24,011 nt of DNA from a virus. The number at the start of each line of letters is the position of its first letter. Position 1 is the stretch's first letter. The stretch lies in the UHGV virus genome UHGV-0298230; one strand, 5' to 3'. The position numbers were made by a program, and so were the translations under genes. Below the pieces are notes generated by a model. That model was given only the letters and a program-made list of their open reading frames with translations, was not told the DNA's origin and did not search any database. Positions 281 through 11,144 of the stretch are shown one piece after another.

Positions 281-1438
281 ATGCTCACCGTTAAGCAGAT
301 TGAAGCAGCAAAGCCGAAAGAAAAACCATACCGCCTTCTCGATGGTAATGGCCTGTACCTTTATGTCCCTGTATCCGGGAAAAAGGTATGGCAGCTTCGC
401 TACAAGATTGACGGTAAGGAGAAAATCCTGACCGTCGGAAAATATCCGCTTATGACTTTGCAGGAAGCAAGGGATAAAGCATGGACTGCGAGGAAAGACA
501 TCTCGGTTGGCATCGATCCGGTAAAAGCGAAAAAGGCTTCGTCTAACAACAATTCCTTTAGCGCCATTTACAAGGAATGGTACGAGCACAAGAAGCAAGT
601 CTGGTCTGTAGGGTATGCGACTGAACTTGCAAAAATGTTTGATGACGACATTTTACCTATCATCGGCGGCCTTGAAATTCAGGATATTGAGCCGATGCAA
701 CTGCTGGAAGTAATCCGCAGATTTGAAGATCGCGGTGCAATGGAGCGAGCCAACAAAGCCCGCAGAAGATGCGGCGAGGTTTTCCGTTACGCTATTGTTA
801 CTGGTAGGGCTAAATATAACCCGGCACCTGACCTTGCTGACGCCATGAAGGGGTACCGCAAGAAGAACTTCCCGTTTCTTCCTGCAGACCAGATCCCGGC
901 ATTCAATAAAGCACTGGCAACATTTTCAGGAAGTATCGTATCGCTCATTGCCACCAAGGTTTTACGCTACACTGCCCTAAGAACGAAAGAGCTTCGTTCC
1001 ATGCTATGGAAGAACGTCGATTTTGAAAACAGAATTATCACCATCGACGCCAGTGTGATGAAAGGACGCAAAATTCATGTGGTCCCGATGTCAGACCAGG
1101 TGGTTGAACTTCTCACTACGTTAAGCTCCATCACCAAACCAGTATCAGAGTTTGTTTTTGCCGGGCGCAACGATAAGAAGAAGCCAATCTGCGAGAATGC
1201 GGTACTGCTTGTGATCAAACAAATCGGCTATGAAGGTCTGGAAAGCGGTCACGGATTCAGGCATGAATTCAGCACGATTATGAACGAGCACGAATGGCCT
1301 GCTGACGCTATTGAAGTACAACTTGCACATGCCAACGGCGGATCTGTGCGCGGGATTTACAACCATGCTCAGTATCTCGATAAACGCAGAGAAATGATGC
1401 AGTGGTGGGCGGACTGGCTTGATGAAAAGGTGGAGTGA
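281..1438 (+). CDS. intS: Tyrosine integrase, P4/IntS-type (N-terminal DUF4102-like arm-binding domain plus C-terminal catalytic domain), 385 aa
   Basis: ORF 245..1438 begins with GTG; the first ATG is at 281 (MLTVKQIEAAKPKEKPYRLLDGNGLYLYVP...), a typical P4-family integrase N-terminus. The sequence matches my recollection of E. coli CPS-53/KplE1 IntS. C-terminal HxxR...Y-type region is present. Confidence 0.9.
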   Translation: MLTVKQIEAAKPKEKPYRLLDGNGLYLYVPVSGKKVWQLRYKIDGKEKILTVGKYPLMTLQEARDKAWTARKDISVGIDPVKAKKASSNNNSFSAIYKEWYEHKKQVWSVGYATELAKMFDDDILPIIGGLEIQDIEPMQLLEVIRRFEDRGAMERANKARRRCGEVFRYAIVTGRAKYNPAPDLADAMKGYRKKNFPFLPADQIPAFNKALATFSGSIVSLIATKVLRYTALRTKELRSMLWKNVDFENRIITIDASVMKGRKIHVVPMSDQVVELLTTLSSITKPVSEFVFAGRNDKKKPICENAVLLVIKQIGYEGLESGHGFRHEFSTIMNEHEWPADAIEVQLAHANGGSVRGIYNHAQYLDKRREMMQWWADWLDEKVE

Positions 1439-1590
1439 TCCACCTTAACCACTATCGAAGAGCACAAAGCCTTGCAATCCAGCGCAACGCTTTGTGTGTC
1501 TCAGTTTTGTCTCATCAACCATAGCAAGTATCGATCGATTGAGACTTGGATGATAGACTTCATGCCTTTCAGAATTCATTGATTAAATAA

Positions 1591-1953
1591 ATGTTAAAGC
1601 TATTTGCAAAGTACACCTCGATTGGCGTGCTGAACACACTTATACACTGGGTGGTTTTTGGTGTATGTATCTATGCCGCGCATACCAATCAGGCTCTGGC
1701 AAACTTCGCAGGTTTCGTTGTGGCTGTGAGTTTTAGCTTCTTCGCGAATGCAAGATTCACATTCAAAGCATCGACTACAACGATGCGCTACATGTTATAT
1801 GTCGGGTTCATGGGAACACTGAGTGCAACTGTTGGATGGGCTGCTGATAGATGTTCACTTCCTCCAATTGTCACTCTCATCACCTTCTCAGCCATCAGTC
1901 TTGTGTGCGGTTTCGTCTATTCAAAGTTCATTGTCTTTAGGGATGCGAAATGA
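1591..1953 (+). CDS. gtrA: GtrA, bactoprenol-linked glucose flippase (120 aa, 4-TM small membrane protein)
   Basis: Size, hydrophobicity and sequence ([24 protein letters not shown]...) typical of GtrA/YfdG; stop overlaps the gtrB start (ATGA at 1950-1953). Confidence 0.9.
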
Positions 1954-2873
1954 AGATATCTCTTGTAGTTCCTGTCTTCAATGAAGAAGAAGCAATACCA
2001 ATTTTTTATAAAACGGTACGTGAATTCGAAGAGTTGAAGCCATACGAAGTGGAAATTGTTTTCATAAATGACGGCAGCAAAGACGCTACGGAGTCAATTA
2101 TTAATGCTCTGGCTGTTTCAGATCCTCTAGTTGTTCCGCTGTCATTTACACGAAACTTTGGTAAAGAACCAGCATTATTCGCAGGGTTAGACCATGCAAC
2201 AGGCGATGCTGTTATTCCTATTGATGTTGACCTGCAAGACCCGATTGAGGTTATTCCTCATCTGATTGAAAAGTGGCAAGCAGGTGCCGATATGGTGCTT
2301 GCTAAACGATCTGACCGATCAACGGATGGCAGACTGAAGAGGAAAACCGCCGAGTGGTTCTATAAGCTACATAACAAAATTAGCAACCCGCAGATCGAGG
2401 AAAACGTTGGTGATTTCCGCTTGATGTCTCGCGAGGTGGTGGAAAACATTAAGCTCATGCCAGAGCGCAACCTGTTTATGAAGGGCGTGCTGAGCTGGGT
2501 TGGCGGACGCACCGATGTCGTTGAATATGCACGAGCAGAACGAGTCGCAGGCAGCACTAAATTTAACGGATGGAAACTGTGGAACCTTGCCCTTGAGGGG
2601 ATAACCAGTTTCTCAACATTCCCGCTGCGCATGTGGACTTATATCGGATTGTTCGTTGCTGGAATTGCTTTTCTTTATGGTGCATGGATGATTTTTGACA
2701 CGCTTGTATTCGGCAATGCTGTTCGTGGATATCCATCGTTATTGGTCTCCATTCTTTTCCTTGGAGGTATTCAACTTATCGGTATCGGTGTACTTGGTGA
2801 ATATATAGGAAGAATTTATGTGGAAGTAAAATGCAGACCACGATATATTTTAAAGAAAAAGGAACAATCATGA
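1950..2873 (+). CDS. gtrB: GtrB, bactoprenol glucosyltransferase (GT2 family, 307 aa)
   Basis: N-terminal GT2 motifs ([10 protein letters not shown]..., DGSKD, D-x-D region) and two C-terminal TM helices; classic position after gtrA. Confidence 0.92.
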
Positions 2874-4141
2874 ATAGCATAAACACAAACAGAATATTTT
2901 TGTTTTTGATTATATTTGTTATATGTTTCATCATATTCTGCATGCGTCGTCCTGATATTATTTCACACCCTCAACTATGGGCAGAGGATGGACGGGTATG
3001 GCTTGGTCAGGCTTATGCATTGGGCCCTCTGAAATCTATAATTTTAGTACAGGATGGTTACTATCAGACAATTTCAAAACTTGTTGCGACATTCTCCATG
3101 CTGTTCCCATTATATCTATCACCTTTTATTTTCACTGTTATTGCATTATCGATAAGATGCGTAATAATAACCTTCATACTATCTAATAGATTCAAAAGCG
3201 TTTCTATATATCCAAGAATATTAATTTCAATCTTCATTTTAACTATGCCACACCTTGAAGAGGTGCATGCCAACGTAACCAACACTCATTGGTATATGGC
3301 AATATGGCTATTCTTGGTGCTGGTAGCAGATAGAACTGATGGATTATATTGGAAAGCACACGACTTTTTGGTGATGGTTGTGGCTGGCCTAAGTGGGCCA
3401 TTCATTGTTTTTTTAGCTCCTGTTGCCTTACTAAGAATTACAAACGGAGATATTCTAAAAACTCCTATCAATGCAGTAAAAAATGCATTCAGAAACTTAA
3501 ACTTATTCTACATAACTTTCGCAATAGTGTGTTTAATTCAGATAGCCGCGATACTTCTCTCTTCTAAAGGCTCTCGACCGACCGCGCCACTTGGTGCAGG
3601 TGTAGGGATTTTGATGGATATACTATCCTCCAGAGTATTCCTTGGCTCATTTCTTAGTGAGAGCTTATCAAGAAAGGTGTGGGATCTGCATGCTTTAAAT
3701 TACTTTGTTTCTTTATGTGGCCTATCAATTAGTGCATACGTGCTATTAAAAGGGAACTGGAAAGAAAAAGCATTAGTGATTTTTCCTTATCTTATGTTGG
3801 GATTTGCCCTTGCCAGACCAGTCATTGCAAGAGACCAGCCTCAATGGCCTCTCTTACAAATAGGACCAGGACAAAGGTATTTTGTCATACCGGCCATATT
3901 TTGGGTGTCGATACTTCTAGCATTCACTAATATGCTTCATGGGCATGTAAAGAAATTAGCATTTTGCATAGTGGCTTGCTCAGTAATTATATCTGGAATT
4001 GTTAGCTTTAAAATTGAAAAAAGACCTAACAATGGATGGATACAAGAGGCATACAAATATGAGACAGCAGAGCCAGGGAGTCGCGTGAAAATGCACACAC
4101 TACCACACTCAGGATGGTATTTAGATATAATAAAAAAATAA
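2831..4141 (+). CDS. Serotype-specific O-antigen glucosyltransferase (GtrC-type polytopic membrane protein), 436 aa; alternative start at 2870 (423 aa)
   Basis: Highly hydrophobic multi-TM protein directly after gtrB; visibly AT-rich compared with flanking genes, as is typical of type-specific gtr genes. ATG at 2870 overlaps the gtrB stop (ATGA) and has AAGGAA 6 nt upstream, so it may be the true start. Confidence 0.8.
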
Positions 4142-4142
4142 G

Positions 4143-4170
4143 TTAAGGGCGGTATTCGCCCTTAATTTTA
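4143..4170. terminator. Bidirectional rho-independent terminator between the convergent gtrC and tailspike genes
   Basis: Perfect hairpin TTAAGGGCG-gtatt-CGCCCTTAA (4143-4165), flanked by an A-run upstream and TTTTA downstream; sits between stops at 4139-4141 (+) and 4168-4170 (-). Confidence 0.75.
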
Positions 4171-6060
4171 TCTAACTCTTGTTATCATAAAGTCAAAATC
4201 TGCATCAGCCAAGTTGCCAGAGTTATCAGTGGTCACGATCCTGATGGCTGTTGTGCTTGGCTTGCCTGCATATAGCACCTTAAACCCGTTAGTTTTAGTA
4301 CTTGCTACTACCTGAAAGTCATTTACTGTTGGTCCATATAAGAAAGCGCTATCAATTGAATATACCCCTGTGGATTGTTTTGCTATTGTTAAATAAGATG
4401 GTGCATACGCAACACCTGCCGACGTTACACTTCCAGAAATCACCGATGAAGTGCTTACCGTAGATATAGACTTGCTTATGTCCTCACTAAAATGACAGGT
4501 ATCCATTCCATTTAAAGTCATATAAGCACCTCCTGAGATAAATGGTCTCGAAGCGCTAGGTATGTATCCAAAAGCTGTTTGAGTAAAAAAATGACACCCA
4601 TTAAGGTTAACAATGACACGCCCACCACCAGTGCTTAACGCTCTAATCACATATGTACAATAACCGCCTGATGAATTCCCCCTTATAAATGTGCATGAAT
4701 TGATATTTACAATAAGAGGTGAAGATGTCATGTTATTAACCTGAATGTCTGATATTCCTTGATTTGCTTCAAAATAGCAATCAGATATATTTATCACAGA
4801 CATTGGTTCTTTAGCTCTTAGGTAAACACCTCCTGTACCAGTATCTCCCTGAGTTCCATTACCCTCAAAATTGCAGTTGTTTAGATTTATCCTTGTGCCT
4901 ATCTCTCCTTCAATTCCAAATTTTGAGTTACCACTAAAAACACCATTTATTTTTAGTGCGTTAACTGTGCTGTTTGTTCCTCCGTTGATGTACATACCGT
5001 AGTTATTATATTGAGAGTTAATTCTGTTAAATTCACTGGTAAGAACTCCTGTTATTACCAAGCCTGAATTATTTCTTACGAGATACACATCCTCAACTTT
5101 TAGGTATGCAGCATTGCTTAACCTTAATCCAACTCCAGAGTTACCAGTACCATAAACAGTGAAATTAGATAACTTCATACCGCTATGCACACCCTGCCCG
5201 CCCCCTTCTGAATTACCTATATACTCAAGGAAATCATTGCCATTGGTGTTAAATGCAGTATTCGCCATTGACTCGCCAGTAAAGTCAAACCTCTTACTTT
5301 TTCTTCCCATTACAGGAAAATTTGATCCAGAGTGGTTTACTGTAACTTTTGTGGTAGAATTGTATTGCCCATCCTTAATTTCTATACCTCCAGTACCAGT
5401 ATTAAGCATATTTTGAATAGCAGGTGAAACCTCTGTTCCAGATTTCACGCCAAACCATGAAGCCATTTTTGCGCCATTATATGAACGCTTCCAGCGACGG
5501 CCTACTGCATCAATTAATACTGTTCCATCATCATCTTCTGTCGTTGTATCATCTGAATCAAGGAAGAACCATCCTTCTCCTCCATCCTGATTATGTTCTC
5601 TTCCTACGCATTTTATTTGCGTTCCAGAAACGTTAGATGTCCTTATTTGTTCATAAGTCGCCCCAACAATATAAGATTCACCATCAACTGCTGCTAATTT
5701 GTTTATGAAAGCTGGCAATGCCTGATCGGGGTCATACTTCAGCACATTAGGAAAATAGAACTGCTGCGTACCATACGCATCATAAACAGCCATAGAATGG
5801 CCTTGCACGGTAACGAATTTGGCAATCTGTCCGTTATATACAGGGTAACCAGCCGCATTAATGATGATTGGTTGCGAAACAGGAACGTGAGAACCATCTT
5901 CGTTCTCTACATAAACCTGAATCTGGTTTTCAGGATTTACCGGGTCAGTGTCAATTTTACCGATATAAATTTTGCCATTGGCAACCGCTTTAAAAGAACG
6001 CGCCATAGTGAAGAGTTGCGAAGGCATACTCACTACAACATTGGCTGTAATGTCTGTCAT
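4168..6060 (-). CDS. Tailspike protein (630 aa): conserved P22-type N-terminal head-binding domain plus parallel beta-helix receptor-binding/O-antigen-cleaving domain
   Basis: N-terminal ~113 aa ([43 protein letters not shown]...KYDPDQ) closely resembles P22 gp9 head-binding domain; remainder has beta-helix-like repeats ([33 protein letters not shown]). Confidence 0.9.
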
Positions 6061-6135
6061 TTAATTTGCTCCAGATACAAGGAATCGCCGCAGCGTGGCT
6101 ACGGTTGGTATTTGTTGCATACCGAAACGGTACGA

Positions 6136-6164
6136 TTGTTGATTTGTACAGTAGGTTTTACGAT
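6136..6164 (+). promoter_or_regulatory. Candidate sigma70 promoter for the second mnt-like gene (-35 TTGTTG 6136-6141, 17-bp spacer, -10 TACGAT 6159-6164), adjacent to palindrome TACCGaaaCGGTA (6120-6132)
   Basis: Hexamer match and spacing only; weak. Confidence 0.3.
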
Positions 6165-6192
6165 GCCATTCCACCCATTTGGTGAGGCATTG

Positions 6193-6450
6193 ATGATGTA
6201 CAGCAAATACGATGAGGCGCAGTTCCACTTGAGGCTTACGCACGAGTTGCACGCCAAGATTAAGCAACGTGCAAAAATGAATAACAGGTCTATCAATTCC
6301 GAAATTGTGGCTACGATGGAAGAATCGCTCTCCAAACCATCACCTGTAAGCGGGTATCGTGATGAAGAAGAGAGGCTTGCCTCATTAATCTCGGAACGAG
6401 TAAAAGAAGTTGCGGCTGATATTCTTAGAAAAGAAAAAACCCGCGATTAA
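6193..6450 (+). CDS. mnt: Mnt-like ribbon-helix-helix repressor (Arc/Mnt family), 85 aa
   Basis: Sequence MMYSKYDEAQFHLRLTHELHAKIKQRAKMNNRSINSEIVATMEESLSKPSPVSGYRDEEERLA... closely parallels P22 Mnt as I recall it (…NGRSMNSE…SKPSPVTGYRNDAERLA…); SD GGTGAGG 6 nt upstream of the ATG at 6193. The long ORF 5797..6450 in the track is an artefactual N-terminal extension antisense to the tailspike. Confidence 0.8.
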   Translation: MMYSKYDEAQFHLRLTHELHAKIKQRAKMNNRSINSEIVATMEESLSKPSPVSGYRDEEERLASLISERVKEVAADILRKEKTRD

Positions 6451-6458
6451 GCGGGTTT
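6437..6458. terminator. Hairpin terminator AAACCCGC-gattaa-GCGGGTTT between the convergent mnt-like gene and the ant operon
   Basis: 8-bp GC-rich stem; on the minus strand it is followed by a T-run (TTTTTCTTTTC); the loop contains the mnt stop codon. Confidence 0.6.
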
Positions 6459-6464
6459 AATTGG

Positions 6465-6686
6465 TTAGTTATCAAAAAGTCCGTAAGTTTCTTCTTCTTC
6501 AGGTGTAAGGGGAAGAATCTCTACTCTATCTATAGATACCTTTTCAATGTACCCATGAGGTCTACTTAAAATTAAAGCTCTCTCATGCCACAGAACTCCA
6601 AGAATGTGATACCTTCCAGCATCTCCTTTTACCCTGGCTCTTCCTTTGATTCTTGGCGGCATAATGCCATATCTTTTCTTTGCCAT
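6465..6686 (-). CDS. Hypothetical small protein (73 aa), basic N-terminus and acidic C-terminus
   Basis: Start ATG overlaps the stop of the upstream gene (TAATG), indicating translational coupling; MAKKRYGIMPPRIKGRARVKGD...LTPEEEETYGLFDN; no family recognised. Confidence 0.55.
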   Translation of the reverse strand: MAKKRYGIMPPRIKGRARVKGDAGRYHILGVLWHERALILSRPHGYIEKVSIDRVEILPLTPEEEETYGLFDN

Positions 6687-7414
6687 TATGCAACATTGCT
6701 CCCATGAATCAGGTGTTGTAGTGCTTTAACACCCTCCGCATTGTAGCGGAATGCTTCCACCTGTTTGCTTGAATGCGCAGATTTATCCAAGAAGAACTTC
6801 CCGTACTGCTCAGTTTTGAGGTTGTTTGCGTTAGCAATGCGACCAATCTTGTTGGCCGTTACTCCAAGCTGCTCTGCAACCTCCCCTGCTGAGTAGTAAT
6901 GCTCTTCTATTGCCGGAAGAGGTATTGCATTAAAACCAACGAGCGGGTTGATTATACTTGCTGCCGCTGTCTGCTTTGCCTCCGGCGCAAGATTTGGCAT
7001 CAGATCGAACAGATTGGTAACAGCTTCAACCGTCATTTTCAATGTTCGCGCTTGACGATACTCAACAAGTCCACTCGCTGATTTACCGCTTTTAATGTGC
7101 GCTTCTTGCATACTTTCAAGTTGGTCTACCAGTGAGCGGCGAACGGCTTTTGACTCGCGAGCGGCAACTCGCAATGCTTGCTTGATTGACATCTCAATGA
7201 TAACCATCGAAGTTTTGTTCGCTTTTTGCACTACACTTTTTGTGTAGTGCTCTCCATCCAATTCATCTTCAATTTTCTCGATGAATTTGTTATTACGAAC
7301 CTCCGGCTCACCGCACTGTCTACGAGCCTGATTTACCATCTCAAGCAGGCGCTGGCTGTCAATGGTTTTATCCGTGACAACGGATCCGATGTTTGCTACA
7401 TTCTTAAAAGTCAT
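6686..7414 (-). CDS. Antirepressor-type regulatory protein, possibly Rha/ORF6N-like N-terminal region and KilA-C/ANT-like C-terminal region (243 aa from ATG at 7414)
   Basis: AAGGAA 6 nt upstream of the ATG at 7414; C-terminal ...YYSAGEVAEQLGVTANKIGRIANANNLKTEQYGKF resembles antirepressor KilA-C-type motifs; the ORF track start at 7501 is a TTG directly after the upstream stop. Confidence 0.65.
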   Translation of the reverse strand: MTFKNVANIGSVVTDKTIDSQRLLEMVNQARRQCGEPEVRNNKFIEKIEDELDGEHYTKSVVQKANKTSMVIIEMSIKQALRVAARESKAVRRSLVDQLESMQEAHIKSGKSASGLVEYRQARTLKMTVEAVTNLFDLMPNLAPEAKQTAAASIINPLVGFNAIPLPAIEEHYYSAGEVAEQLGVTANKIGRIANANNLKTEQYGKFFLDKSAHSSKQVEAFRYNAEGVKALQHLIHGSNVA

Positions 7415-7482
7415 TAGGCATTCCTTATGTGGTAGTAAGGGTGTGACATAGGCCGCCAGCAGCACACTGGCGGTTTTCTTTT
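7409..7482 (+). ncRNA. Candidate sar-like antisense RNA complementary to the start codon and SD of the 6686..7414 gene
   Basis: Plus-strand terminator CCGCCAG-cagcaca-CTGGCGG followed by TTTTCTTTT (7453-7482) lies in the intergenic gap of a minus-strand operon; candidate promoter -35 GTGACA (7374-7379), -10 TACATT (7397-7402); the transcript would contain UUCCUU, anti-SD to AAGGAA. Confidence 0.4.
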
Positions 7483-7501
7483 GCGCCGTCCTGTGCACCA
7501 A

Positions 7502-8140
7502 TCAATGAATCCATTCCTCGCCGCGAAGTTTTGCCAGCATTGGCTGAGCGTTCTTTACGACAAAATTGTTGGTATCAAGATTCTTCATTTCACGAAGAAG
7601 CGATTTCTTGGTTTCTTCTGACATGTAGCGAGTCTCATATGCAATATCGTAAATCCTTCCAGAAAGCTCAGAACCAATTTGCTTCATTCCTGGGTAGATG
7701 TGTTTGCACATTTGTTGACTCTTCTCCATCCACAATTGTAAGTAGCAGAGATTAACCAGCTCTTCGTCAGTAAACTGTTTTGCAATCGGTGAGCATTCTG
7801 CCTGCCGATCCAAAATATCCAGCACCCAGCGGCGGAACTCTTTGGCCTTGGGCGTAGAAGCAAACATCGCCACCAAGTGAGCGCCTCGGAGCGAGTAAAC
7901 TCTGACCGATTTGTTACGTAAGCTATTGTTTATCCCGTTGACCTTCATATTGAGGGTCAATGACATTGAGTCGGAAAATTCGTCAGCATTACGGGCATAA
8001 ATTTGGCTGATGGCATCAGTTTTTTTATAGCCGAGAGCCTTAGCTAGTTCGGCGGAGGTGAACCAGATAGACCCGCCCTCTGTTACAGGGTTAAAAGTGA
8101 ATCCTTGGAAGTTATAATCTGATTTTGCTACAATATTCAT
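7502..8140 (-). CDS. Antirepressor-type protein with Bro-N/AntA-like N-terminal domain (212 aa from ATG at 8140)
   Basis: AAGGAA 6 nt upstream of the ATG at 8140; N-terminal region (FNPVTEGGSIWFTSAELAKALGYKK...VRVYSLRGAHLVAMFASTPKAKEFRRWVLDIL) matches the Bro-N/AntA pattern; the track's longer ORF start at 8224 overlaps the arc-like gene and lacks an SD. Confidence 0.7.
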   Translation of the reverse strand: MNIVAKSDYNFQGFTFNPVTEGGSIWFTSAELAKALGYKKTDAISQIYARNADEFSDSMSLTLNMKVNGINNSLRNKSVRVYSLRGAHLVAMFASTPKAKEFRRWVLDILDRQAECSPIAKQFTDEELVNLCYLQLWMEKSQQMCKHIYPGMKQIGSELSGRIYDIAYETRYMSEETKKSLLREMKNLDTNNFVVKNAQPMLAKLRGEEWIH

Positions 8141-8215
8141 GTTAGTTTCCTTGGGTACGGTTACTGACATAGAGGCCCGGTTTGTGTTCGCGCACTTCCG
8201 GGCTTCACTATTTTT
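8141..8215 (+). ncRNA. Candidate sar-like antisense RNA covering the SD and start of the Bro-N antirepressor gene
   Basis: Plus-strand candidate promoters (-35 TTGGAA 8105-8110 / -10 TACAAT 8129-8134, or -10 TATAAT 8113-8118) inside the 5' end of the minus-strand gene; imperfect stem-loop 8173-8205 followed by TATTTTT (8209-8215) in the arc-ant gap; arrangement matches P22 sar RNA. Confidence 0.4.
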
Positions 8216-8390
8216 ACTGGGCATTAGCTCTTTCCTCTCTCAGGCTTTTAGCCAGTCGCTGCACAATCGCAGAGTTGATAGAAATTCCATCCATTTCAGC
8301 TACGCGTCTGATCTCCTCCTTCATTCGCGCTGGCAAACGAAGCTGGAAACTCTGACTTTTACGACCACTGTAAAGAACATCGCTCATCAT
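8214..8390 (-). CDS. arc: Arc-like ribbon-helix-helix repressor (58 aa from ATG at 8390; track ORF extends to 8405)
   Basis: ...SQSFQLRLPARMKEEIRRVAEMDGISINSAIVQRLAKSL... has the Arc/Mnt RHH signature; GGAG 6 nt upstream of the ATG at 8390; divergent from the mnt-like gene across an operator-rich region, as in P22 immI. Confidence 0.75.
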   Translation of the reverse strand: MMSDVLYSGRKSQSFQLRLPARMKEEIRRVAEMDGISINSAIVQRLAKSLREERANAQ

Positions 8391-8401
8391 CAATATCTCC
8401 G

Positions 8402-8475
8402 TCATAATGACATCACCGTGATGTCATGACACCATTATGATGCCATTGCTCATAATGTCAATATGATGCTACTGT
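8402..8475. promoter_or_regulatory. Divergent promoter/operator region: 21-bp perfect palindrome ATGACATCA-ccg-TGATGTCAT (8407-8427), repeated TCATAAT/ATTATGA half-sites, and a strong minus-strand promoter (-35 TTGACA at 8461..8456, 16-bp spacer, -10 CATAAT at 8439..8434)
   Basis: Direct reading; the palindrome lies at about +1 of the minus-strand promoter, consistent with an operator for an RHH repressor. Confidence 0.55.
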
Positions 8476-8510
8476 GTTTTTTATTGCTCATATGCCTTGC
8501 GAATAAGAAA

Positions 8511-8762
8511 ATGTCAGAAAAAGACGAATCAAATTTCATAGAAAGATTTACGGTTAGAATGCCTGAAGGCATGCGTAGTGCTATTGCGGAAAGGGCTAAA
8601 CGAAACGGTCGATCTATGAACTCAGAGATAGTTCAAATTCTTGAGGATGCGTTATCATCTGACGTCTCATCAGTAGACAAATCATTAGATCTTAAACAAA
8701 TAAAATCTTTACTTGATAAAATTTCCAACGAGTTACTGGATAGAATCCCAAAAGACACATAA
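8511..8762 (+). CDS. mnt: Mnt-like ribbon-helix-helix repressor (83 aa from ATG at 8511)
   Basis: MSEKDESNFIERFTVRMPEGMRSAIAERAKRNGRSMNSEIVQILEDAL... has the Arc/Mnt signature (NGRSMNSE); same length as P22 Mnt; the track start at 8463 lies inside the operator region. Confidence 0.75.
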   Translation: MSEKDESNFIERFTVRMPEGMRSAIAERAKRNGRSMNSEIVQILEDALSSDVSSVDKSLDLKQIKSLLDKISNELLDRIPKDT

Positions 8763-8808
8763 CAAAACATTATCATCCGGTGTTCTGCTCAAAACTAAGG
8801 AGGTTGGT

Positions 8809-9129
8809 GTGTATATATCGCTATCTACCATTTTTTTCATCTGCTTAGCTATTTGGCTTTTAAGAATATGGCAGGATTGCTCTGTCAGCCATGCTGCTGC
8901 GGTGAGAAATAAAAACGCCCTCATAAAAGAAGCTGAAAACGTTGTCTTATCAATGGATCACCTTTCATGGACCGAGATGACTACAGGGCAACAAGAGGTT
9001 TATGAGTGTGCGATTGAGCGGTTAAGGCTGCTTAAATCGTACAAAAAGAACCACGCACCCGACTCATTCCCATTCCTGAAAGAATGGCCGAGATGGTATG
9101 ACCCGAAAAAAGCAACCATCAACCGCTAA
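8809..9129 (+). CDS. Hypothetical small membrane-anchored or secreted protein (~106 aa) at the position occupied by sieA in P22
   Basis: Strong SD AGGAGG (8798-8803) 5 nt upstream of in-frame GTG at 8809; N-terminal hydrophobic segment (YISLSTIFFICLAIWLLRIW) then a soluble domain; no family recognised. Confidence 0.55.
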   Translation: MYISLSTIFFICLAIWLLRIWQDCSVSHAAAVRNKNALIKEAENVVLSMDHLSWTEMTTGQQEVYECAIERLRLLKSYKKNHAPDSFPFLKEWPRWYDPKKATINR

Positions 9130-9137
9130 CCAACTTT

Positions 9138-11144
9138 TTACTGCTGGGCTTTCTCACTTGAAGCCTGAATTAGAGGTGTAAGAGTTTCAGATACCCGTCT
9201 GATCGCTCTATCATAAGCAGTACTTCCTTTTGGTGTGTTTGCTAACTTTAGTAATGCGTTCCTCATCGCGCGTGACTCATAGCCCCTGCCAGCCATACCG
9301 ATACCAGCTCCAACTGCCGCAACTTTTGCAAACATTGGATTTGTAACAGATGCAAGAGCTGTTATCAGCGCTGCTGGACCAGCTACCATTTGCCCTGTTA
9401 GTGGGCTTGCGGCAGCAGTAGCTGCCTGTCTAGTGGAATCAAGATATTTCATTATCCCATCAAGCTGTTTCCCATGCTCTCCTCTGAAGAACGTCTCAGC
9501 CTGCTTCCGATTCCTTTTCATTTCATTAATAAACTTCTCAACGCTAAGCTTTCCTGAATCGCTTGTCGCCTTATCCATTGCACGCTGAACAAGTGCTGCT
9601 CTAGCATTTTGACGCCCACTATCATCAAGCAATCGATAAAGTTGCGCCCTTTCCGCTGGGCTTTGGCTGAATACTAGTTTAGTGACATCTTCTGGCGTTG
9701 TTTTACCACTCTGAATAGCTTTTTGGACACGTGTATTGCTCATCATGTCGTTGAACTTTGCCCAAGAACGATCAATACGCGACATGTTTTGCGCTTCCTT
9801 CGCACCTAGTTTTGCGCCAACCGCTTTTTTCATGTCTGTTGTGTATGCGTTATAAACAGACTGCGCAGCTTTCTCCAGCGTATCTCTATCGACCTCGTCA
9901 GGTGCTGCCATAAAGCGCTTACGTAAGTTTGTACGGTTTTCTCTAGCTAATTGCAGGTTATTTGGACCGCTGGTGATGTCATTTCTAAACTGTTGAAGGA
10001 CAGAAACAGCTGAGCGGTCTTGCGATACTCCTGGGCGAGTTAACTTGGAAATCTGCTCATCAATTGCTTTCACTGTTCCAGTGATGTCAACAGGAGTATC
10101 CCCCATCAAACTGATGATCCTGTCGTACCGCTTGCCAGCAGCCTGAATAAATTGCTGCTGACCACGAGTAGCTGATTGGTAAAGTTGTGCGTCAGATATT
10201 CCACCAACATTATCGCTAAATGTTCTAACTAAATCTTCCCTGGCCTTTTGCTGTGCATTTCTTATCCCACCTGTTCCGGCTATTGGGATTCGCTCAGCCA
10301 TAGCTCGTGCTTGCTTACCAATATTTGTTCCCGGTTCCACAAGATCTGTTGTCATCAGTGGCAAGTTGTTCTGCTTGGCAAAGTCAATCTGAGCTTGTTT
10401 TTCAGGAGCAATCTTACCCATAGCAGAACGAGACACTGCGCTTGCGGTGTTTTCTACACCCTTCAGTACCCCACCAAGACCAGCAGAAATTGCAGTTTGA
10501 ACTGGATTAACATTCTCACCGCCAGCGATCTTTGTGGCACCCTGTAAAGCTAAATCAGTAGCGCCTGATTTTAGTGTTGCACCTACAACAGACGCAGCTC
10601 TACCTGCTGGAGTGAATGCAAGAGCATTTGCCAAGAATGACGTTATATCCTGCGGTGACAAACCAGGCTTGTTAAGTGCATATTCCCCTGAAGGAAGGGT
10701 GACTATGGAATTTCCCTTCTCATCCTTCCGGATTTTCCCGCCAATACTTTGCAGTATTTTCTCCTGTGAAGCGTCGGAACCAAATAGCTGCCCCAATCCA
10801 GCACGCAGCGCATCAGTGCTTAAGCTATTAAGCTCTGGAGCAGACCCAACATTTTGCAGTCTCTCCATTTCTGGTGTCATTCGGCTTTCACCGGTAACGG
10901 CATCGCGCATTGCAGCACCTAAAACAGCCCCTTGCTCAGCAGATCGATCTAGTCCTTCCTTCTGCTGAGTGGCAAGCTGTGCATATCCTGATGCAAGTGA
11001 GTTGTCTGCTGGCGATTGCTGAACACCTTGTTGTGTTGGTGCTGACTGACCAGCAAAATACTCATCAATGGCGGTGCCAATATCTTCGGTGCTCGTACCA
11101 TCAGGAAAGGTAAATGTCTTACCGTTTGCAGTTACTTTCATCAT
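9138..11144 (-). CDS. Ejection (internal virion) protein, P22 gp16-like (668 aa)
   Basis: Position and order after gp7/gp20 homologues; N-terminus [30 protein letters not shown]; start overlaps the upstream stop (ATGA). Confidence 0.85.

Follow-up and report, generated by a model that had tools for sequence, protein, structure and literature searches.

The tailspikes of Lederbergvirus phages such as P22 and Sf6 are homotrimeric proteins, present in six copies per virion, in which a head-binding domain docks the spike on the tail and a β-helix binds and cleaves the repeats of the O-antigen. In lysogens of this family, GtrABC glucosylates the O-antigen and blocks re-adsorption; for the P22-like coliphage Hf4s, glycosylation of the O-antigen by the gtr cluster and the block to re-adsorption have been shown experimentally (preprint, bioRxiv 10.1101/2021.06.09.447823). 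The modularity of Lederbergvirus tailspikes, the exchange of receptor-binding parts across phage morphotypes and the placement of O-antigen modification genes behind the spike have been documented (PMC10408124, PMC2629481, PMC12724387), as has fragment-level shuffling in receptor-binding proteins (PMC10684548). The gene analyzed here lies in UHGV virus genome UHGV-0298230, a stretch of 24,011 nucleotides (nt) referred to below as the window. It is very likely the tailspike gene of a temperate P22/Sf6-like podophage, encoding an adaptor and an O-antigen-cleaving β-helix beside receptor-modifying gtrABC genes. For this tailspike, we infer trimer formation, hydrolase activity, an Escherichia coli O-antigen as the substrate, and modification of that antigen by GtrC. 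The particular receptor unit is the only new element, the modularity and the arrangement of the conversion genes being already known.

Domain boundaries of the tailspike

The gene and its domains, numbered by window position and by tailspike residue, are as follows.

4168–6060, minus strand: tailspike gene, an intact open reading frame of 630 amino acids plus stop, with an ATG start
5722–6060, minus strand: head-binding (tail-attachment) domain, residues 1–113, ending in KYDPDQ (Pfam PF09008)
5386–5721, minus strand: neck helix, small β domain and helix cap, residues 114–225 (AlphaFold2 helix 111–123, strands 148–192, helix 200–221)
4501–5385, minus strand: predicted right-handed parallel β-helix, residues 226 to ~520, with candidate catalytic carboxylates E399, E431 and D438
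4171–4500, minus strand: C-terminal β-sandwich, residues ~521–630 (AlphaFold2 strands 539–628)

The Pfam profile PF09008 (Head_binding) covers residues 1–113 end to end, at profile positions 1–113 (E 7.1e-67), and the sequence matches found by phmmer in the Protein Data Bank (PDB) to Sf6 gp14 and P22 gp9 end at residues 114–124. The conserved head-binding domain that the initial annotation had drawn up to KYDPDQ is thereby confirmed, whereas its description of that domain as nearly P22-like is imprecise, since the identity is 76.8% with P22, 92.9% with Sf6, and 96–99% with HK620, CUS-3, N7 and 720R6. By sequence, it is the E. coli/Shigella variant. The structure of Sf6 gp14N, which is 93% identical to this domain, has been solved in situ on the tail (7sg7).

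Joints between the modules were located by a two-segment likelihood model on codon-aware DNA alignments. Against N7, Sf6 and Sf101, the breakpoint falls in all three cases at nucleotide 339 of the gene, between residues 113 and 114 and between window positions 5721 and 5722, with nucleotide identities of 88–92% on its 5′ side and 30–37% on its 3′ side. The swap boundary that had been described as visible in the sequence is thus placed exactly, and the lower GC content ascribed to the receptor part is borne out as well. The GC content is 43.1% in the head domain, 38.6% in residues 114–630, and 37.3% in gtrC, the lowest in the window, compared with 47.7% in the rest of the phage. At third codon positions (GC3), it is 41.6% in the head domain and 22–30% in the rest of the tailspike. 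The 1,640 sliding windows of 1,554 nt placed beyond position 6060 all have at least 42.3% GC (mean 47.9%, standard deviation 2.2%). When window positions 2700–6300 were compared by megablast with 5,426 complete E. coli genomes, the head domain and the arc gene were present in 1,170 of them; the receptor unit was fully covered in none, and only the E. coli genome L001 (NZ_CP178707.1) reaches into it.

Three further joints are observed when the tailspike is compared with relatives that carry parts of the same receptor region. One of these relatives, L004, is a Logan contig whose tail genes are 98.5% identical to those of the Enterobacter siphophage CobraSix. The similarity between L004 and CobraSix stops 172 nt into the spike gene and returns ~5 kb later, and judged by these matches L004 is a CobraSix-like siphophage prophage with a different spike adaptor.

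Residue 125/126, window position 5685: joint relative to L004, nucleotide identity 36% before and 76% after
Residue ~232, window position ~5363: joint relative to the 634–635-residue E. coli prophage spikes (L008, L005), nucleotide identity 94–97% before and 57–61% after
Residue 353, window position 5002: joint relative to the E. coli VTB97584v spike (L001), nucleotide identity 96.6% before and 61.5% after

The E. coli prophage tailspikes of 631–635 residues (P0003 in L001, P0004 in L005, P0008–P0024 in L008) are 96–100% identical over residues 1–232, and their identity past the joints is 51–75%, or 31–51% in the C-terminal domain. Within the E. coli P22-like population, residues 1–232 thus appear to form an extended shared anchor behind which the β-helix is exchanged at ~232. 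The modular swap that the initial annotation placed at residue 113 is sharp there against N7, Sf6 and Sf101, but among E. coli P22-like prophages with this spike family the working joint lies at ~232. The L001 tailspike (4719–6614 of its record) is identical to that of the window up to residue 353, residues 211–330 being 100% identical in nucleotides, and on this comparison it is a natural chimera with its joint inside the β-helix. In a five-way comparison, the window and L004 are uniformly 80–88% identical across residues 126–630, and L001 beyond residue 353 is equally distant from both, so the L001 type is the recombinant and the window unit is coherent. These two observations rule out that the β-helix of the window is itself chimeric at residue 353, and the receptor part does form one coherent piece, as had been claimed, over residues 126–630.

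The tailspike would thus be a modular fusion of a widely shared adaptor (residues 1–113/125) and a coherent receptor unit (residues 126–630). At least three adaptors recognized by Pfam are found in front of this receptor unit, namely the P22 head-binding domain, Tail_spike_N (PF18668) and the T7 fibre N terminus (PF03906), together with further adaptors that have no Pfam N-terminal match. Exact copies of the 630-residue protein are present on six public contigs, including the window itself (European Nucleotide Archive metagenome contig ERZ27273781:k119_16470), and spikes of the window type (98–99% identical) are intact in at least four E. coli assemblies at NCBI, the carrier genomes being GCA_047529625.1, GCA_020541625.1, GCA_013772175.1 and GCA_002549135.1. 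Among named NCBI proteins, the closest distinct one has 64% identity, and no carrier above ~40% identity over the β-helix was found among 50,697 deposited phage genomes.

Predicted fold and candidate active site of the receptor part

An AlphaFold2 monomer model was built from 67 homologues, and its predicted local distance difference test score (pLDDT) is mostly above 90 for residues ~130–630. In the model, a stack of short strands (224 to ~520) is preceded by capping helices (200–221) and followed by a terminal β-sandwich (539–628), and the structural neighbors of the model are tailspikes and depolymerases with a β-helix. The central domain is accordingly predicted to be a right-handed parallel β-helix, and the lack of such a fold, which the initial annotation had named as grounds for refutation, is not seen in the model. 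The initial annotation had described residues past 113 as one β-helix domain of ~515 residues; a different receptor module with a β-helix is indeed predicted, but the module is divided into three sections, consisting of the neck and small β domain, the β-helix, and the β-sandwich.

In phmmer searches, residues ~144–225 correspond to the equivalent small domain of two proteins, the Klebsiella K64-1 S2-4 depolymerase and, with E 1e-9, the tailspike of Acinetobacter phage AM24 (5w5p), and the small β domain region also matches the N-terminal region of WceF. Residues 114–225 have a GC3 of 22% and are 96–99% identical among E. coli P22-like tailspikes whose β-helices differ. The C-terminal domain is the most divergent part, with 35–51% identity to relatives except for L004 (80%) and the copies of the same lineage.

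A sequence search of the receptor part against known tailspikes, as the initial annotation had proposed, gives no similarity to those of P22, Sf6 or HK620 and a phmmer match of residues 224–629 to Sf11 gp13 (9occ_G, E 8e-43). The tailspike also carries a match to PF27114 (Phage_tail_beta), taken from precomputed annotation and separate from the Pfam scan that gave PF09008. These matches assign the receptor part to the PF27114/Sf11 gp13-like β-helix family. The family is moderately small: in a search of 1.84 billion representatives, 316 clusters matched at E ≤ 1e-3, and 45 did so at E ≤ 1e-30. An NCBIfam search of the tailspike gave no match, and no SGNH hydrolase domain of the G7C gp63.1 or Moo19 deacetylase type was matched by Pfam in the tailspike, the fold matches being to β-helix enzymes.

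In the 67 homologues, which are 24–98% identical to the tailspike, E399 (NFEGNG), E431 (YFEANQG), R257, N443 and R460 are invariant, and D438 is at least 90% conserved. The catalytic carboxylates are E359, D392 and D395 in P22, and E366 and D399 in Sf6. E399, E431 and D438 are proposed as the active site because of their conservation and because two of the carboxylates, as in the P22 and Sf6 pattern, lie 32 residues apart on successive rungs.

The adjoining gtr operon and the proposed function

The tailspike gene converges on a gtr operon, and the operon and the receptor unit together form a block that is common with L004.

1551–5685, no strand assigned: colinear 4.1-kb block (gtrA, gtrB, gtrC, terminator, tailspike residues 126–630) common with L004
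1591–1953, plus strand: gtrA (flippase; PF04138 GtrA_DPMS_TM; named yfdG in L001)
1950–2873, plus strand: gtrB (bactoprenol glucosyltransferase of the GT2 family; PF00535, NCBIfam GT2; named yfdH in L001)
2870–4141, plus strand: gene for a GtrC-type serotype-specific membrane protein of 423 residues (homologues named "glucosyl transferase")
4143–4165, no strand assigned: hairpin in the gap between the convergent gtrC and tailspike stops (terminator scan; perfect 9-bp stem with five GC pairs)

The order of gtrA, gtrB and the GtrC-like gene is that of a GtrABC operon, with activities predicted from the families and the names of homologues. The longest open reading frame of the GtrC-like gene starts at 2831, and its product has no Pfam or NCBIfam match. 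Copies that are 99% identical are found in E. coli genomes, and below these none is above 50% among the sampled relatives. No close GtrC relatives are present in the species-representative genomes scanned, a metagenome scan gave GtrC relatives only at 42–50% identity, and IMG/VR holds one contig of the same GtrC/spike lineage and two distant ones. The stop codons of gtrC and the tailspike gene are separated by 26 nt, and this space is filled by the hairpin TTAAGGGCG ... CGCCCTTAA. Flanked by a run of A and, at its opposite end, a run of T, the hairpin probably terminates transcription in both directions. A terminator is annotated at the equivalent position in Sf6.

All eight places with a 99% identical GtrC among the matches listed, four of them NCBI E. 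coli assemblies, have an intact spike of 98–99% identity adjoining. The next GtrC relatives, of at most 50% identity, adjoin other receptor-binding proteins: in L013 this is a Mu/P2-type fibre, and in L014 a Tail_spike_N/pectate-lyase-like spike that is not related to the present one. In L001, where the spike diverges in its distal half, the GtrC has 507 residues and is likewise unrelated.

Window positions 1551–5685 align with L004 in a single uninterrupted blastn alignment (81.6% over 4,137 nt), and the proteins are 93.6% (GtrC), 95.1% (GtrB), 87.5% (GtrA) and ~83% (receptor unit) identical. Synonymous divergence (dS) between the two is at least 1.4, at or near saturation, in the spike, gtrB and gtrA, and 0.49 in gtrC. 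Nonsynonymous divergence (dN) is 0.03–0.13 across the genes of the block and 0.07–0.13 for the receptor unit, which indicates that the receptor unit is under strong purifying selection. Transfer of the 4.1-kb block as one recent event is ruled out by the near-saturated dS in the spike, gtrB and gtrA. Around positions 2761–3960, the nucleotide identity shows the same contrast, with 90–96% in gtrC and 72–83% in the flanking spike, gtrB and gtrA. Saturation outside gtrC implies that the linkage is old, and the lower value within gtrC suggests that this gene was exchanged separately, at a later time, between the lineages of the two phages.

A tentative interpretation, which we regard as somewhat short of an even chance, is that the receptor unit (residues 126–630) and gtrC-gtrB-gtrA constitute a long-maintained "recognize, then modify" cassette that has been placed behind different adaptors, in an Escherichia podophage and in an Enterobacter-group siphophage, and in which one O-antigen is read both by the distal spike (residues 354–630) and by the GtrC type, so that the two co-vary. 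The data fit co-variation of the distal spike with the GtrC type, with L004 as the one clearly independent case. If the cassette interpretation is true, the spike type would predict the Gtr type and the O-antigen epitope, and vice versa.

In the proposed mechanism, residues 1–113 would attach the spike to the tail hub in the manner of P22 and Sf6, with residues 114–225 forming the neck and small β domain. The β-helix (226–520) would bind a host surface polysaccharide, most likely O-antigen, and cleave it, with E399, E431 and D438 on successive helix rungs as the likely catalytic carboxylates, and by this cleavage the virion would clear a path to the outer membrane. Judging from other tailspikes, the C-terminal β-sandwich (521–630) probably aids trimer assembly or binding. 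After lysogeny, gtrA-gtrB-gtrC would add a sugar side branch to the same O-antigen, and the modified lysogen would no longer be recognized by phages with this spike. The adjoining gtrABC genes, the homology to Sf11 gp13 and the invariant acidic residues all point to O-antigen as the polysaccharide that is bound and cleaved.

Alternatively, the spike could be a depolymerase of capsule or exopolysaccharide (K-antigen, colanic acid or enterobacterial common antigen) rather than an O-antigen enzyme, with the gtr genes as unrelated cargo. P22-type head domains are fused to an endosialidase in CUS-3 and, in SEN22, to a spike annotated with "colanic acid degradation". Capsule depolymerases from phages of Klebsiella and Acinetobacter account for many of the model's best structural matches, WceF is an exopolysaccharide enzyme, and relatives of the spike are present in Enterobacter, where capsule is common. 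This alternative is nevertheless unlikely, given the close association of the spike with one particular GtrC (proteins of this class modify O-antigen), the sequence homology to gp13 of Sf11, a phage whose infection needs O-antigen (PMC12724387), and the correlation of E. coli Lederbergvirus spikes with O-serogroup (PMC10408124). A β-helix that acts as a polysaccharide lyase or as a non-catalytic binder, instead of a hydrolase, is considered marginally less probable still. Finally, the gene could belong to a decaying prophage remnant, its modularity having no current function. The sources of the sequence are a metagenome contig and prophages, the gtr–spike unit of one E. coli assembly has no adjacent integrase, and the receptor unit is found in no isolated phage of the phage collection. 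On the other hand, the 630-residue reading frame is intact in every copy examined at 98–99% identity, and dN/dS against L004 is far below 1. The P22-type virion gene set is complete and colinear, its terminase, portal, coat, tail and ejection-protein genes being 95–97% identical to those of viable phages (Escherichia phage N7, Sf6, HK620), and IMG/VR holds a 41.5-kb viral contig with a spike of the window type. Decay is thus very improbable.

Several points weigh against the O-antigen-cleaving tailspike and its link to the gtr genes. The AlphaFold2 model is of a monomer only, and its head domain has a pLDDT below 50, the alignment being shallow there because few of its sequences carry that domain. 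The catalytic residues are drawn only from conservation and the 32-residue spacing. In the Sf11 gp13 structure only residues 4–59 are modeled (PMC12724387), which leaves the β-helix family without a solved structure, and the Sf11 and Sf101 tailspikes, the closest from characterized phages, are only 30–41% identical over the β-helix, so specificity is not transferable from them. Finally, the spike relatives L006, L007 and L008 have no adjoining gtr operon, so the linkage is not obligatory.

Prophage context and comparison with known systems

Two further genes of the prophage are as follows.

281–1438, plus strand: integrase, IntS-type (argW/yfdC site; Pfam Phage_integrase)
6163–6450, plus strand: Arc/Mnt-family repressor gene of the immI region, divergent from the tailspike gene (PF03869 Arc)

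The order of genes in the window, with the gp16 homologue, arc/ant/mnt (the immI region), the tailspike, gtrCBA and int, is the P22-type placement, and the neighboring genes, which carry P22-type Pfam families, include those of P22-type gp4, gp10, gp26, gp7, gp20 and gp16. The window is a P22/Sf6-like (Lederbergvirus) prophage of E. coli. Its integrase is 99.5% identical to IntS of L001, where the gene lies beside tRNA-Arg and yfdC, and in sister copies the integrase end of the prophage adjoins yfdC and mlaA (the argW integration site). The gene at 6163–6450 is named Arc family DNA-binding protein in E. coli genome annotations. A reading frame of 217 residues at 5797–6450 on the plus strand, which runs antisense over the 5′ end of the tailspike gene, is an artefact, and only its last 95 codons (6163–6450) are the Arc/Mnt-family gene.

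Between arc and the gp16 homologue, public annotation shows no gene over ~750 nt (8390–9138) with a GC content of 37–39%. This stretch contains plus-strand reading frames at 8463–8762 (Arc-like ribbon-helix-helix) and 8713–9129 (138 residues with a hydrophobic segment), and in other P22-like phages (L008) this position is occupied by sieA. In L019 (3258–8230 of GCA_047529625.1), the gtrABC–tailspike unit is preceded by a Peptidase_S24 gene, has no adjacent integrase and adjoins other chromosomal genes (PBP5-like, FUSC), which suggests integration at another site or rearrangement of the prophage. In L018 and L020 (~6341–8230), a full-length tailspike frame of 98–99% identity aligns without a break, yet no gene is listed in the public tables; this looks like an annotation gap and not a pseudogene.

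Tailspike receptor units set the O-serotype host range and are used as typing reagents and as parts of engineered phages. Among the 50,697 deposited phage genomes searched, none has the present unit, apart from relatives of ~30–40% identity, yet it is intact in several E. coli genomes and thus adds an unsampled specificity. It offers a clean natural example of adaptor and receptor exchange between a podophage and a siphophage and an example of persistent linkage between a receptor-binding unit and a gene that modifies its receptor. The joints at the start of the β-helix (~232) and inside it (~353) are of practical interest for the design of chimeric spikes. Current understanding is not overturned by these data.

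Comparison with the Lederbergvirus spikes of P22 (gp9), Sf6 (gp14), HK620 (gp9), CUS-3 and N7 shows that they share with the window the head domain (77% identity in P22 to 99%), the adaptor-plus-β-helix design, and the position of the gene after immI (arc/ant/mnt) and by the conversion genes and int. Past residues 113–124, no sequence similarity of the window spike to P22 gp9, Sf6 gp14 or HK620 gp9 is detectable, with a nucleotide identity of 30–32% to the right of the joint, so its receptor unit is of a separate sequence family. In Sf6, oac takes the place that gtrABC has in the window. The spikes of the siphophage Sf11 (gp13, PDB 9occ) and the podophage Sf101 belong to the same β-helix sequence family as that of the window, at the 30–41% identity given above, but lack the domain of residues 141–225 in alignable form. 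Sf101 likewise has a P22-type head domain and carries an O-antigen-modifying O-acyltransferase B gene behind the spike. The adaptor of Sf11, unlike that of the window, is helical and attaches to the distal tail protein. The 631–635-residue E. coli prophage spikes (L001, L005, L008) are of the same family and architecture and differ past the joints. CBA120 TSP2 (PDB 5w6p/6w4q) is 13–14% identical in sequence and is part of an Ackermannviridae branched spike complex with a different adaptor. P22, epsilon34, Hf4s and Kapi1 resemble the window in having a convergent tailspike and gtrC-gtrB-gtrA beside int (PMC2629481). No other sampled GtrC type exceeds 50% identity to that of the window, and the receptor unit paired with it does not belong to the families found in P22 and epsilon34.

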